IMG/VR virus record: IMGVR_UViG_2526164634_000018
DNA: 14,574 bases
Origin: a virus
Taxonomy: Duplodnaviria; Heunggongvirae; Uroviricota; Caudoviricetes
Direction: 5' to 3' (one strand)
Below, one piece after another: positions 34 to 11,065 of this stretch. The translations under genes and the position numbers were made by a program. Positions within the stretch are counted from its first letter, which is position 1, and every line of letters starts with the position of its first letter. Below the pieces are notes generated by a model that saw nothing but the letters and a program-made list of their open reading frames with translations, did no database searches and was not told the DNA's origin.

Positions 34-92
34 GGTCTGTTTCCTCCGGCTCTACAAAAATAATGTCCATCATTTTTAATGGACACTATCGT

Positions 93-740
93 ATGAAACA
101 CCGGACCTGGATCACTGAAGCTTTACGTCTTCACTTTGAAGAACATTTACCCCGGGTTGTGGCCGGGCGTCGCCTGGGTGTACCAAAATCAACAGTTTGT
201 AATATGTTCGTGCGCTTTCGGAGAGCTGGCCTTTCGTGGCCTTTGCCCGCAGGCATGTCGGAGCAGGAACTTGATGCCTGCCTTTACGGACAATTTTCCA
301 CGGTACCAGTCGTACGTCCTGAAAACACCGTTATATCCGAAGCCCCCGTGATAAAAAAACGTCCCCGGCGGCCCAACTTCCCTTATGAGTTTAAAATCGC
401 CTTAGTGGAGCAGTCACTGCAGCCCGGAGCCTGTGTGGCGCAGATCGCCCGGGAAAACGGAATCAACGATAACCTGCTCTTCAACTGGCGCCATCAATAC
501 CGGAAAGGTGGCCTGCTGCCTTCCGGAAAAAATATGCCGGTACTGCTTCCCGTGACGTTAACGCCGGAGCCGGATAATAAAATCCCGGCCCCCGCACAGG
601 AACCAGAGCAGATAAATACACCGTCCGACAGTCTGTGTTGTGAGCTGATTCTGCCGGCCGGAACTCTCAGGCTTAAAGGTAAACTGACGCCGGCGTTATT
701 ACAGACACTTATCCGCGAAATGAAAGGGAGCAGCCACTGA
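93..740 (+). CDS. IS66-family orfA-like protein: N-terminal HTH module fused in frame to the canonical IS66 TnpA region
   Basis: Six-frame ORF 63..740; the ATG at 93 (MKHRTW...) aligns with the start of the copy 2 homologue, so 93 is the likelier start. C-terminal part (PRRPNFPYEFK...LQPGACVAQIARENGINDNLLFNWRHQYRKG) is the IS66 TnpA HTH region. Stop TGA 738..740 overlaps the orfB ATG (ATGA coupling). Confidence 0.75.
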   Translation: MKHRTWITEALRLHFEEHLPRVVAGRRLGVPKSTVCNMFVRFRRAGLSWPLPAGMSEQELDACLYGQFSTVPVVRPENTVISEAPVIKKRPRRPNFPYEFKIALVEQSLQPGACVAQIARENGINDNLLFNWRHQYRKGGLLPSGKNMPVLLPVTLTPEPDNKIPAPAQEPEQINTPSDSLCCELILPAGTLRLKGKLTPALLQTLIREMKGSSH

Positions 741-1087
741 TGATATCTCTCCCTGCCGGTTCGCGTATCTGGCTGGTTGCCGGTATCACCGATATGCGAA
801 ATGGTTTTAACGGCCTGGCATCAAAAGTTCAGAACGTCCTGAAGGATGACCCGTTCTCCGGACACCTGTTCATCTTCCGCGGACGCCGGGGTGACCAGAT
901 AAAAGTGTTGTGGGCTGACAGTGACGGACTGTGCCTCTTCACCAAACGCCTGGAGCGGGGCCGCTTCGTCTGGCCAGTCACCCGTGACGGCAAGGTGCAC
1001 CTTACTCCGGCTCAGTTATCCATGCTTCTTGAAGGTATCAACTGGAAGCACCCGAAACGAACGGAACGCGCTGGAATCCGCATATAA
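740..1087 (+). CDS. tnpB: IS66-family accessory protein TnpB (orfB), intact 115 aa
   Basis: ORF MISLPAGSRIWLVAGITDMRNGFNGLASKV...; typical IS66 orfB size and position between orfA and the large transposase; start overlaps the orfA stop. Confidence 0.9.
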   Translation: MISLPAGSRIWLVAGITDMRNGFNGLASKVQNVLKDDPFSGHLFIFRGRRGDQIKVLWADSDGLCLFTKRLERGRFVWPVTRDGKVHLTPAQLSMLLEGINWKHPKRTERAGIRI

Positions 1088-1106
1088 CCCGTTGTAAAGT
1101 GAGGAT

Positions 1107-2677
1107 ATGGACACCTCACTTGCTCATGAGAACGCCCGCCTGCGGGCACTGTTGCAGACGCAACAGGACACCATACGCCAGATGGCGAATACAACCGCCT
1201 GCTCTCACAGCGGGTGGCGGCTTATGCCTCCGAAATCAACCGGCTGAAGGCGCTGGTTGCGAAACTGCAGCGCATGCAGTTCGGTAAAAGCTCAGAAAAA
1301 CTTCGCGCTAAAACCGAACGGCAGATACAGGAAGCACAGGAGCGAATCAGCGCACTTCAGGAAGAAATGGCGGAAACGCTGGGTGAGCAATATGACCCGG
1401 TACTGCCATCCGCCCTGCGCCAGTCTTCAGCCCGTAAACCGTTACCGGCCTCACTTCCCCGTGAAACCCGGGTTATCCGGCCGGAAGAGGAATGCTGTCC
1501 TGCCTGTGGTGGTGAACTCAGTTCTCTGGGATGTGATGTGTCAGAGCAACTGGAGCTTATCAGCAGCGCCTTTAAGGTTATCGAAACACAACGTCCGAAA
1601 CTGGCCTGTTGCCGGTGCGACCATATCGTGCAGGCACCGGTGCCTTCAAAACCCATTGCACGCAGTTATGCCGGAGCGGGGCTCCTGGCCCATGTCGTCA
1701 CCGGAAAATATGCAGACCATCTGCCGTTATACCGCCAGTCAGAGATATACCGCCGTCAGGGTGTGGAGCTGAGCCGTGCCACGCTGGGGCGCTGGACTGG
1801 TGCCGTTGCTGAACTGCTGGAGCCGCTGTATGACGTCCTGCGCCAGTATGTGCTGATGCCCGGTAAAGTCCATGCTGATGATATCCCCGTCCCGGTCCAG
1901 GAGCCGGGCAGCGGTAAAACCCGGACAGCCCGGCTGTGGGTCTACGTCCGTGATGACCGTAACGCCGGTTCACAGATGCCCCCGGCGGTCTGGTTCGCGT
2001 ACAGTCCGGACCGGAAAGGTATCCATCCACAAAATCACCTGGCCGGTTACAGCGGTGTGCTTCAGGCCGATGCTTACGGTGGTTACCGGGCGTTATACGA
2101 ATCCGGCAGAATAACGGAAGCCGCGTGTATGGCTCATGCCCGGAGAAAAATCCACGATGTGCATGCAAGAGCGCCCACCGACATCACCACGGAAGCCCTG
2201 CAGCGTATCGGTGAACTGTATGCCATCGAGGCAGAGGTCCGGGGCTGTTCAGCAGAACAGCGTCTGGCGGCAAGAAAAACCAGAGCCGCGCCACTGATGC
2301 AGTCACTGTATGACTGGATACAGCAACAGATGAAAACACTGTCGCGTCACTCAGATACGGCAAAAGCGTTCGCATACCTGCTGAAACAGTGGGATGCACT
2401 GAACGTGTACTGCAGTAATGGCTGGGTGGAAATCGACAACAACATCGCAGAGAACGCCTTACGGGGAGTGGCCGTAGGCCGGAAAAACTGGATGTTCGCG
2501 GGTTCCGACAGCGGTGGTGAACATGCGGCGGTGTTGTACTCGCTGATCGGCACATGCCGTCTGAACAATGTGGAGCCAGAAAAGTGGCTGCGCTACGTCA
2601 TTGAACATATCCAGGATTGGCCGGCAAACCGGGTACGCGATCTGTTGCCCTGGAAAGTTGATCTGAGCTCTCAGTAA
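1107..2677 (+). pseudogene. tnpC: IS66-family transposase (orfC), disrupted by a 1-bp frameshift near 1188
   Basis: ATG at 1107 with GAGG upstream; the frame ([28 protein letters not shown]...) hits a stop after ~46 codons, and the remainder resumes in another frame as ORF 1214..2677 (487 aa). Copy 2 (8417..9988) is intact at 523 aa; copy 1 reads GCGAATACAACC where copy 2 reads GCGAAATACAACC. Confidence 0.85.
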
Positions 2678-9988: not shown

Positions 9989-10007
9989 ATCCTCACTTTA
10001 CAACGGG

Positions 10008-10356
10008 TTATATGCGGATGCCAGCGCGTTCCGTTCGTTTCGGGTGCTTCCAGTCGATGCCTTCGAGAAGCATGGACAACTGAGCCGGAGTAAGGTGAAC
10101 CTTTCCATCGCGGGTGACCGGCCAGACGAAGCGGCCCCGCTCCAGGCGTTTGGTGAAGAGGCACAGTCCGTCACTGTCAGCCCACAGCACTTTTTATCTG
10201 GTCACCCCGGCGTCCGCGGAAGATGAACAGATGCCCGGAGAACGGGTCATCCTTCAGGACGTTCTGAACTTTTGAGGCCAGGCCGTTAAAGCCATTTCGC
10301 ATATCGGTGATACCGGCAACCAGCCAGATACGCGAACCGGCAGGGAGAGATATCAT
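10008..10356 (-). pseudogene. tnpB: IS66-family TnpB (orfB) with a 1-bp insertion frameshift at 10191..10195
   Basis: Minus strand reads MISLPAGSRIWLVAGITDMRNGFNGLASKVQNVLKDDPFSGHLFIFRGRRGDQIKSAVG*; the rest (LWADSDGLCLFTKRLERGRFVWP...) resumes in another frame as the 60-aa ORF 10008..10190. Copy 2 has ATAAAAAG where copy 1 has ATAAAAG. Confidence 0.85.
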
Positions 10357-11005
10357 CAGTGGCTGCTCCCTTTCATTTCGCGGATAAGTGTCTGTAATAA
10401 CGCCGGTGTCAGTTCACCTTTCAGCCTGAGAGTTCCGGCCGGCAGAACCAGCTCGCAGCACAGACTGTCTGGCAGTGTATTTATCTGTTCAGGTATCTGC
10501 ACTGGTGCCGGGATTTTATATCCGGCTCCGGTGTTAACGTCACGGGAAGTAGCGATGTTTCATGTTCGCCGGGTCGTTGCAGGCCACCGTTACGCCAGAG
10601 ATGCCGCCAAGTTAAAGAGCAGGTTATCGTTAATTCCATTCTCTCGAGCTATTTGTGCGACACAGGCACCGGGTAAAAGAGTTTGCTGAACCAGTCTCCA
10701 TTTAAACTCCGGTGAAAATCGGTTCCGGCGGGGTTTCTCTGCTTTCACAGGCTGAGTCACGGTCGGGGCTGAAGGGTATCGCCCCGGGAAAGAGCCCGGG
10801 CCAGTTGCCCGCAGGAATATTCACCGGAAAGAGGCCAGTCAGTGAATACCTGGTGAAATCGCCTCACCAGAGAAAAAATGGCGGTTTTGCTGACACCAGT
10901 CTGCGCAGAAATGCGCGGGTACGACAGTGACTCGTCAAATCTCAGCTGTAGCACACGCAGGATCAATTCTGGATTATCTGCCAGTACCGCTTTTCGTGCA
11001 TTCAT
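10356..11005 (-). pseudogene. Degenerate IS66-family orfA region: 82-aa N-terminal HTH ORF (10757..11005) followed by TnpA-homologous sequence in at least two other frames
   Basis: ORF MNARKAVLADNPELILRVLQLRFDESLSYPRISAQTGVSKTAIFSLVRRF... is homologous (~35% identity by eye) to the copy 1 orfA N-terminus. Downstream, KPRRNRFSPEFKWRLVQQTLLPGACVAQIARENGINDNLLFN and TWRH...LLPVTLTPEPD appear in different frames separated by stops, against one continuous 225-aa frame in copy 1. Confidence 0.7.
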
Positions 11006-11065
11006 CTTAAATGTCCTTTTACTGCGAAAATGGACATTAGTATCGGAAACAGGAAAGGGAGGCGA

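Follow-up and report, generated by a model that had tools for sequence, protein, structure and literature searches.

Two mosaic IS66-family insertion sequences, ISCro1 and IS679, share a backbone, differ in their left ends and keep an inverted repeat in the tnpA leader

We analysed a 14,574-nucleotide stretch of viral DNA (IMG/VR record IMGVR_UViG_2526164634_000018, Caudoviricetes; "the window" below means this whole stretch) that carries two IS66-type insertion sequences (ISs) in inverted orientation relative to each other, copy 1 at 10–2707 on the + strand and copy 2 at 11090–8387 on the – strand. The best overall explanation, in which we have middling confidence, is that these are two known IS66-family elements, ISCro1 and IS679, that both are mosaic, and that the leader of their tnpA gene holds a conserved inverted repeat that may fold into a hairpin hiding the ribosome-binding site. 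In enteric bacteria, mosaic ISs and conversion events between IS copies are well-established phenomena, and the control of transposase expression by inverted repeats in the leader is a classical theme.

Copy 1 was 99.6% identical over all 2698 bp to the element labelled "IS66-like element ISCro1" by the Prokaryotic Genome Annotation Pipeline (PGAP) and RefSeq, and copy 2 was 99.7% identical over 2704 bp to PGAP-labelled IS679; the naming is based on these PGAP-labelled copies. As the copies match two separately named ISs, they are not two copies of one element. IS679 was reportedly first described by Han et al. in 2001 from the enteropathogenic Escherichia coli (EPEC) plasmid pB171. Both copies showed the hallmarks of the family. 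Terminal repeats of ~20–30 bp beginning with GTAAGCG or GTAA were present at the left ends (GTAACCGGCTCATTTAAACCGTCT at 10–33, + strand, and GTAAGCGCATCATTTAAACCGTCT at 11067–11090, – strand, exactly as quoted in the initial annotation of this DNA) and at the right ends (...CGCTTAC at 2707 and 8387); within the left repeat, the family-conserved blocks were GTAAGCG at positions 1–7 and CCGTCTG at positions 19–25. The gene set tnpA-tnpB-tnpC was present in both, with Pfam matches to HTH_Tnp_1 in tnpA, TnpB_IS66 (E = 4.7e-40) and DDE_Tnp_IS66 (E = 1.3e-103), as well as zinc-finger, leucine-zipper and C-terminal domains in tnpC, and the tnpB ATG overlapped the tnpA TGA as ATGA (737–740 in copy 1, 10358–10354 in copy 2). 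The 8-bp target-site duplication of the family was found as GGTTGAAG on both sides of copy 2, and as TGTTCATG on both sides of the ISCro1 insertion in strain 12A, discussed below. ISCro1 takes its name from Citrobacter rodentium ICC168, which has 24 copies (PMC3072379).

The relationship between the two elements changed sharply along their length. Comparing intact ISCro1 with intact IS679, and numbering by IS position, we found 67% identity over IS 1–33 of the multiple alignment (within the window itself, the arms of 31 nt show 84% complementarity), 49% over IS 34–92, and 36%, effectively unalignable, over IS 93–380. Identity then rose to 68% over IS 381–540 and 86% over IS 541–630, and stood at 95–97% beyond 630, the zone of intermediate identity extending to about window position 626. 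These segment identities bear out the strong divergence over the first ~450 bp described in the initial annotation, and with values from 36% to 95–97% the divergence is anything but uniform along the element. The low identity estimated there by eye for the N-terminal helix-turn-helix (HTH) modules of orfA (tnpA) also held, the figure itself being 27% of amino acids instead of about 35%.

Comparison with a second clade of relatives (Pantoea stewartii L007 and L012, Mixta L018 and Pantoea L036) separated the histories of the two parts. In tnpB and tnpC, ISCro1 and IS679 were 96–97% identical to each other and both were 76–80% identical to this clade, which was 84–91% identical internally. The ISCro1 backbone was ~79% identical to that of L007, and yet its arm matched L007 at 86% (IS 34–92) and 66% (IS 93–380), against the 49% and 36% seen with IS679. 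Conversely, L018 and L007 had backbones 89–90% identical and arms only 44% (34–92) and 36% (93–380) identical. One and the same arm type thus occurs with either backbone, and more than one type of arm is found on each. Silent sites told the same story: in the HTH_Tnp_1 domain, ISCro1 and IS679 shared 78% of amino acids and 42% of third codon positions, which is near saturation, compared with 89% of third positions in tnpB and 91% in tnpC. By this measure the arm is old and the backbone young, so faster evolution of the arm protein cannot account for the pattern. Vertical descent from one recent ancestor, with a left arm that merely evolves faster under relaxed or diversifying selection, would fit the observation that, in all comparisons, conservation within TnpA was lowest in the N-terminal module and the linkers. 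We regard it as extremely unlikely, given this silent-site contrast, the grouping of the ISCro1 arm with Pantoea elements of 79%-identical backbone and not with IS679, and the existence of recombinant copies with differing breakpoints. The incongruence of arm and backbone, the silent sites and the natural recombinants together support the proposal, already made in the initial annotation, that the elements are mosaics formed by recombination, with what appears to be a recently exchanged backbone and left ends of separate ancestry.

From IS ~620 onward (the last ~37 tnpA codons, tnpB, tnpC and the right end), we infer that the backbones are kept alike through homologous recombination or gene conversion acting among co-resident copies. 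The left ~620 bp (leader, sigma70-r4-like HTH module and HTH_Tnp_1) have a history of their own, and a much older one. On the simplest reading, gene conversion ends where homology runs out, which would produce the graded rise from 68% through 86% to 95% at the boundary. An AlphaFold model of TnpA (mean predicted local distance difference test score, pLDDT, 73.6) placed a four-helix, sigma70-r4-like HTH module at residues 6–68, a disordered linker at 69–95, HTH_Tnp_1 at 98–137, a second linker at 140–180 and a small C-terminal domain at 182–212. The shifts in identity at ~IS 380–400 and ~IS 617 coincided with the two predicted linkers. With the shifts lying within linkers, the DNA-binding half of TnpA moves together with the DNA of the left end, and the C-terminal domain stays linked to tnpB and tnpC. 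The N-terminal module gave weak matches to sigma-70 region 4, above the Pfam threshold only in L018, and its homologues were restricted to enterobacterial IS66 TnpA proteins (310 clusters); a Foldseek comparison of this TnpA model with the PDB returned no significant match, the best being double homeodomains at E = 0.039.

Natural recombinants were found in the viral-contig sample of 80 prophage-borne loci, 65 of them with a TnpB 99–100% identical to the query. About 50 of the loci had the ISCro1 arm and about 10 the IS679 arm. Two, L099 and L133, were ISCro1 with an IS679-type patch at IS 473–639, in which 37 of the 39 informative sites were IS679-type and which was flanked by 237 and 22 ISCro1-type sites; a third, L152, was IS679 carrying ISCro1 patches. 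Copy 1 of the window itself had IS679 alleles at 1270, 1273, 1306, 1309 and 1783 within tnpC, where 15 of 15 other ISCro1 copies differ, and the same alleles are present in the neighbouring copy 2. These recombinant copies, with the conversion tract in copy 1, show that exchange between ISCro1 and IS679 is ongoing. Separately, ISCro1-, IS679- or ISEc23-like sequence makes up most of the contigs of L004, L011, L065, L067, L069, L070 and L072, which carry assignments to Clostridiales, Thauera, Rikenellaceae, Macrococcus, Streptococcus sanguinis and Moraxella. L004, with a TnpA at 97% identity, and L011, ~99% identical to IS679 over the left 1.6 kb, are near-identical to the E. coli elements, and all seven are probably contaminant or mis-binned contigs whose assignments do not reflect true hosts.

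The leaders of the two tnpA genes, although divergent, each contained an inverted repeat just upstream of the start codon. The start itself needed attention in copy 1. The single 225-residue frame reported in the initial annotation is present, open from 63 to 740, and the start common to relatives is the ATG at 93, which gives a tnpA of 215 amino acids at 93–740 (+ strand). The frame upstream of ATG 93 meets a stop in two Pantoea relatives (L007 and L012), and the NCBIfam model NF038385 starts at residue 3 of the ATG-93 protein, so that ISCro1 tnpA probably starts at ATG 93 rather than at PGAP's longer start. The ISCro1 repeat, TAATGTCCAT-N8-ATGGACACTA, lies at 61–88 on the + strand, with a perfect core at 64–70 and 79–85 and one A.C mismatch in the extended arms; its 3' arm includes a GGA 8 nt before ATG 93. 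The TGTCCAT/ATGGACA arms had been correctly identified earlier, with a spacer given as 9 nt and an end at 86 that we correct to 8 nt and 85. In IS679 the repeat is AATGTCC-N15-GGACATT at 11010–11038 on the – strand, its arms at 11038–11032 and 11016–11010 and its spacer agreeing with the earlier description; it stands 4 nt upstream of the tnpA ATG (11005–11003), and its 3' arm overlaps AAGGA. A 5-codon upstream open reading frame (ORF; window 79–96, ATG GAC ACT ATC GTA TGA) begins in the 3' arm of the ISCro1 palindrome, and its stop and the tnpA start overlap in an ATGA, which is also the motif that couples tnpA and tnpB. L007 and L012 have this ORF too, L162 and the Mixta group have an in-frame fusion of it, and IS679 and the short-TnpA types lack it. 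We considered this ORF as the reason for the conserved ATGGAC and rejected it, since it is restricted to the ISCro1-type arm.

The pattern TGTCC-N5–20-GGACA occurred exactly twice in the 14.6-kb window, in the two leaders, against an expectation of 0.28. Taken singly, the two palindromes could pass for chance inverted repeats in A/T-rich leaders, functionless, as at least two matches to the pattern arose in 8 of 200 shuffles of the window and the hairpins are short and modestly stable (–8.6 and –7.6 kcal/mol; z = –2.4 and –1.4). What makes this very unlikely in our view is that 15 distinct leaders, unalignable around the repeat, have it at one and the same place and with compensatory changes. 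A binding site for the transposase at the element ends was considered and rejected, as such a repeat was found neither near the right end nor elsewhere in the window. No Rfam family matched anything in the window.

The comparison of leaders covered 80 loci (one genome per species), five plasmid loci and the 80 viral loci, with a tblastn search of plasmids that covered at least 5000 enterobacterial records. Between the left end and tnpA we distinguished ~15 sequence types, and nearly all had an inverted repeat at the same place. In L007 it was a perfect TAATGTCCAT-N8-ATGGACATTA, and in L012 a perfect TAGTGTCCAT-N9-ATGGACACTA, compensatory relative to L007. L015 had GTCCATC-N6-GATGGAC; the Klebsiella/Phytobacter type had GATAGAGTCCA-N12-TGGACTCTATC, with a core pair altered on both sides; the Sodalis types had an inverted repeat with G.U wobbles, and the ISEc23 type had CTTAGACGCCCATC...GACGGACATCTAAG. 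The repeat was present also in elements with a short TnpA (125–141 amino acids) that lacks the N-terminal module, among them the ISEc23, Klebsiella/Phytobacter and Sodalis types; L034, L042, L085 and L087 are elements of this kind.

RNAalifold, applied to 15 aligned leaders, predicted a single consensus helix of 8 pairs, 4 of them compensatory. When the helix was taken as 10 pairs, 84.7% of cells were paired, compared with 25–41% when the partner was slid by 1–3 columns; both sides had changed in 5 pairs (13 cells), and none of 500 shuffles reached the covariation score. Each of the 12 leaders tested gave a better fold than dinucleotide shuffles of itself (z between –1.4 and –6.0). The geometry was also conserved. 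In ungapped numbering from the end of the IS, the start of the 5' core G(T/C)CC was at 56 in 13 of 14 groups and at 57 in the remaining one, and the 3' core GG(A/G)C started at IS 71–75, with the start codon 7–10 nt further on in 13 of the 14. Spacing of the half-sites, from core start to core start, was therefore 15–19 bp across groups, around an A/T-rich loop of 6–15 nt, and between the terminal blocks and the 5' arm only A48 and T52 stood out as conserved. The conserved functional site suspected in the initial annotation is in line with these data, and the palindrome, far from being absent from other family members, is kept in 15 distinct IS66-family leaders. They support the view that it acts as a conserved control element of the tnpA leader in this enterobacterial branch of the IS66 family, with or without the N-terminal module.

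Two exceptions were found. A long-TnpA group from Mixta, Pantoea, Erwinia and Cedecea lacks the 5' arm and has two or three direct ATGGACAC motifs instead, which derive from an 18-bp duplication. The Trabulsiella element L059 has only a degenerate repeat; its Enterobacter relative L085 has kept the repeat, with a 15-nt gap to the start codon. The direct repeats of the Mixta group read CATGGACACT-N8-CATGGACACT-N4-GTGGACA at leader positions ~50–85, with all ATGs in frame with tnpA. Members of this group are L016–L033, L036, L040, L057 and L160, of which L017 represents the unduplicated form, and Mixta mediterraneensis has at least 16 copies of the element. The arm type of L015, L084 and L163 has a second small inverted repeat, TTGTC-CTGTCT-GACAA, at leader ~31–47, ahead of the main repeat. 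A further TGTCC motif lies within this second repeat, which also overlaps the –35-like hexamer CTGACA.

For the action of the repeat our slight preference is for an mRNA hairpin masking the ribosome-binding site, a tentative reading to which we would give a little less than even weight. On the mRNA, the two arms would pair and hide the weak tnpA ribosome-binding site. Read-through transcripts that start outside the element would contain both arms and be poorly translated. The element's own weak promoter may consist of a –10-like nAnaaT at IS 47–52 and a –35 box in the inner terminal repeat, an arrangement seen in many ISs; its transcript would start at ~IS 58–61, leave out the 5' arm and not fold. 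The 3' arm provides GGA or GGG at Shine-Dalgarno distance in all leaders, and the predicted stems end 0–10 nt before the start codon. The variable length of the loop and the compensatory changes in the outer stem favour this hairpin model. In IS10 and IS50, mRNA secondary structures have been proposed to sequester translation initiation signals (10.1101/2025.01.24.634351, a summary). The likeness to these fold-back structures lies in an inverted repeat near the left end, with a 3' arm over the Shine-Dalgarno region and a 5' arm at or upstream of the predicted transcription start; the differences are that they belong to other IS families, that the ISCro1/IS679-type core is more conserved than pairing requires, and that the start used here is a predicted one. 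A further difference is that we know of no antisense RNA for these IS66 elements.

Several observations weigh against the hairpin. Neither leader gave a passing hit in consensus scans for promoters and terminators, and the –10-like hexamer at IS 47–52 has only 3–4 of 6 consensus matches, with weak –35 partners. The 4-bp core GTCC/GGAC is almost invariant, beyond the needs of pairing and of a GGA Shine-Dalgarno sequence, and the 5' arm lies at a fixed distance from the IS end, which a model acting on RNA only can explain solely through the putative promoter. An RNA helix would favour G.U among the non-Watson-Crick cells; we counted 9 G.U and 12 A.C, without strand bias, which is uninformative. 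In the Mixta/Pantoea/Erwinia group the direct repeats resemble protein sites more closely, as would the ISEc23 group under its alternative reading as a 13-nt direct repeat. The IS679 hairpin is weak on its own (z = –1.4), and the predicted gain in accessibility of the ribosome-binding site upon removal of the 5' arm is small for IS679 and the Sodalis type and arises partly by construction. Support for a function of the palindrome is, moreover, comparative throughout.

Some of these observations point towards the alternative that the palindrome is a DNA operator, in which a dimeric HTH protein would bind the arms around a –10 box in the A/T-rich loop and repress tnpA. The near-invariant core TGTCCA/TGGACA, the fixed placing of the 5' arm, the two or three TGGACA motifs kept by the Mixta/Pantoea group and the lack of an excess of G.U over A.C would all suit a protein site. 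A perfect TTGACA-15 nt-TATAAT is present in L007, and CTGACA-15 nt-TATATT in L015, both with the –10 within the loop. The candidate protein would most plausibly be the HTH_Tnp_1 domain common to all TnpA proteins, more plausible than the N-terminal module, and such repression would resemble that by InsA of IS1 or IS2; this part of TnpA partially matches the NCBIfam "IS2 repressor TnpA" and IS3 models, and the region of its recognition helix, ARENGINDNLLFNW, is conserved between ISCro1 and IS679. The HTH proteins InsA of IS1 and IS2 and OrfA of the IS3 family are repressors or left-end binders. The IS66 case is like them in that TnpA has the same HTH_Tnp_1 fold class and a symmetric site lies near candidate promoter elements at the left end, and it differs in its variable half-site spacing and in that binding by TnpA is putative. 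That spacing, with the 5' core at 56 and the 3' core anywhere from 71 to 75, is hard to fit to a single dimer geometry, and the outer arm positions covary through four Watson-Crick pair types. Candidate promoters of consensus type overlap the repeat only in the groups of L007 and L015, with a 15-nt spacer, other groups having weak candidates only, and a transcript starting ~7 nt past the loop –10 would have a leader of 5–8 nt without a ribosome-binding site. The specific form proposed in the initial annotation, an operator for the N-terminal HTH protein, was not supported: besides the variable spacing, the repeat occurs with and without that module, so this protein is not required, and the long-TnpA Mixta/Pantoea/Erwinia group has no inverted repeat. 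TnpA of IS66 elements is also said, by Han et al. in 2001, to be required for transposition and not merely a repressor. We consider an operator doubtful, though it is the alternative we take most seriously.

Both elements are broken in the window, though the decay is mild. Compared with intact ISCro1 (L002), copy 1 has lost one base at ~1186, which splits tnpC (1107–2677, + strand); its tnpB lies at 740–1087 (+ strand, 115 amino acids, TnpB_IS66). Copy 1 further differs from ISCro1 in the short IS679-type conversion tract and in that its target duplication is not seen in the window. Copy 2 is like IS679 in its length of 2704 bp, its tnpA-tnpB-tnpC order with the ATGA overlap, its GTAAGCG ends and its 8-bp target duplication, and differs from intact IS679 (L001) in four 1-bp indels, at 10792, 10610 and 10520 in tnpA (10356–11005, – strand, now in three frames) and at 10195 in tnpB (10008–10356, – strand, frameshifted by an additional A). 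Its tnpC (8417–9988, – strand) is intact, encoding 523 amino acids with the Pfam domains LZ_Tnp_IS66, zf-IS66, DDE_Tnp_IS66 and DDE_Tnp_IS66_C. As tnpA and tnpB are broken, copy 2 is probably not autonomous.

The split of copy 2 orfA noted in the initial annotation is thus real, but it is not a native feature: intact IS679 tnpA is a single ORF of 216 amino acids, which makes the split frames decay or sequencing error rather than design. Programmed ribosomal frameshifting in the style of the IS3 family, suggested by the homologous orfA parts in different frames and by the IS3-like HTH_Tnp_1 domain of the family, was rejected on the strength of those unbroken ORFs. The indels in the window are, in addition, of 1 bp and in short homopolymer runs, tnpB has one as well, and there are three frame changes instead of one; we find this the least credible of the alternatives considered. 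Expression in the IS66 family reportedly proceeds by translational coupling and not by frameshifting (Han et al., 2001). A 1-bp indel at 3377 likewise affects the tail-fibre N-terminal gene (2681–4189), which is in several ORFs in the window and is a single 437-residue ORF in strain 12A. Together with the five 1-bp indels of the ISs, it could mean either a decaying prophage or homopolymer-type sequencing errors in the assembly.

Both elements lie within the tail region of a lambdoid prophage, ISCro1 in a tail-fibre gene and IS679 in the tail-tip gene J. The duplication GGTTGAAG flanks IS679 on its left (11091–11098, – strand) and right (8379–8386, – strand), and the J frame is continuous across the element, with the body of the gene at 5008–8386 (– strand) and its first ~110 nt at ~11091–11199. 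The insertion site of ISCro1 is identical to that in E. coli O111:H2 strain 12A, where the duplication TGTTCATG is intact. It was not found in the window, where the left flank (1–9) is TGTTCATG and the right flank TATTTTCG. After the right end of ISCro1 the window has 163 additional bases (2708–2870). They match, at 91% identity, the tail-fibre C-terminal gene situated to the left of the IS in 12A, which suggests a later rearrangement at this flank, via paralogous tail-fibre sequence or another IS copy. ISCro1 and IS679 share ~2.1 kb at 96% identity, inverted, around 5.7 kb of tail genes (the tail-fibre N-terminal part, lom and most of J). Recombination between them would invert these 5.7 kb; the intact duplication of IS679 indicates that this inversion has not occurred here. 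In strain 12A (L169, NZ_CP077479.1, ~2630–3962), IS2 is inserted inside the ISCro1 leader, just past the tnpA start, with GAAAC duplicated (window equivalent 95–99), and IS679 lies in the tail gene K (C40 peptidase) and not in J, making this prophage region a repeated IS target. A repeat finder also detected a 20-nt direct repeat in the tail-fibre gene (3566–3585 and 3689–3708, 123 nt apart) and a 38-nt imperfect palindrome, 71% complementary, at 11266–11329, just upstream of the J start region.

A more far-reaching interpretation would make the left ~620 bp an exchangeable specificity cassette, composed of the inner terminal repeat, the leader with the palindrome at +56 and the two TnpA HTH domains, in which the palindrome serves as an operator or assembly site. 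We consider this improbable. If it were true, co-resident relatives such as ISCro1 and IS679 could evade one another's regulation or end recognition by exchanging cassettes on a common tnpB-tnpC backbone kept alike by gene conversion, comparable to the swaps of immunity regions among lambdoid phages. Mosaic variants of IS1 and IS3, formed by recombination between isoforms in enteric bacteria, were reportedly described by Lawrence, Ochman and Hartl in 1992. Our elements resemble these in having segments of differing histories and conversion tracts between co-resident copies, and differ in that one boundary divides the catalytic backbone from an entire functional module made up of the left-end DNA and the DNA-binding half of TnpA.

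Real as the finding is, it concerns mostly ordinary biology in elements already catalogued, and both of the mechanisms considered have well-known precedents in other IS families. We found nothing relevant in the full-text literature on IS66 regulation or mosaicism and, the two most relevant papers aside, no description of the cassette/backbone boundary or of a fixed-geometry leader repeat in the literature searched. The modular boundary and the conserved leader repeat, from IS 56 to ~80, are possibly unreported so far. For annotation, the value lies in recognising the elements as ISCro1 and IS679, both broken here. To our knowledge almost nothing is known of the control of IS66-family genes, and for this reason the homogenised backbone and the leader repeat may merit a short note, although neither upsets established views. 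For the family, the comparisons point to gene conversion that would homogenise the backbone of co-resident relatives, with a left-end, DNA-binding module that retains an ancestry of its own and boundaries between the two in the linkers of TnpA.

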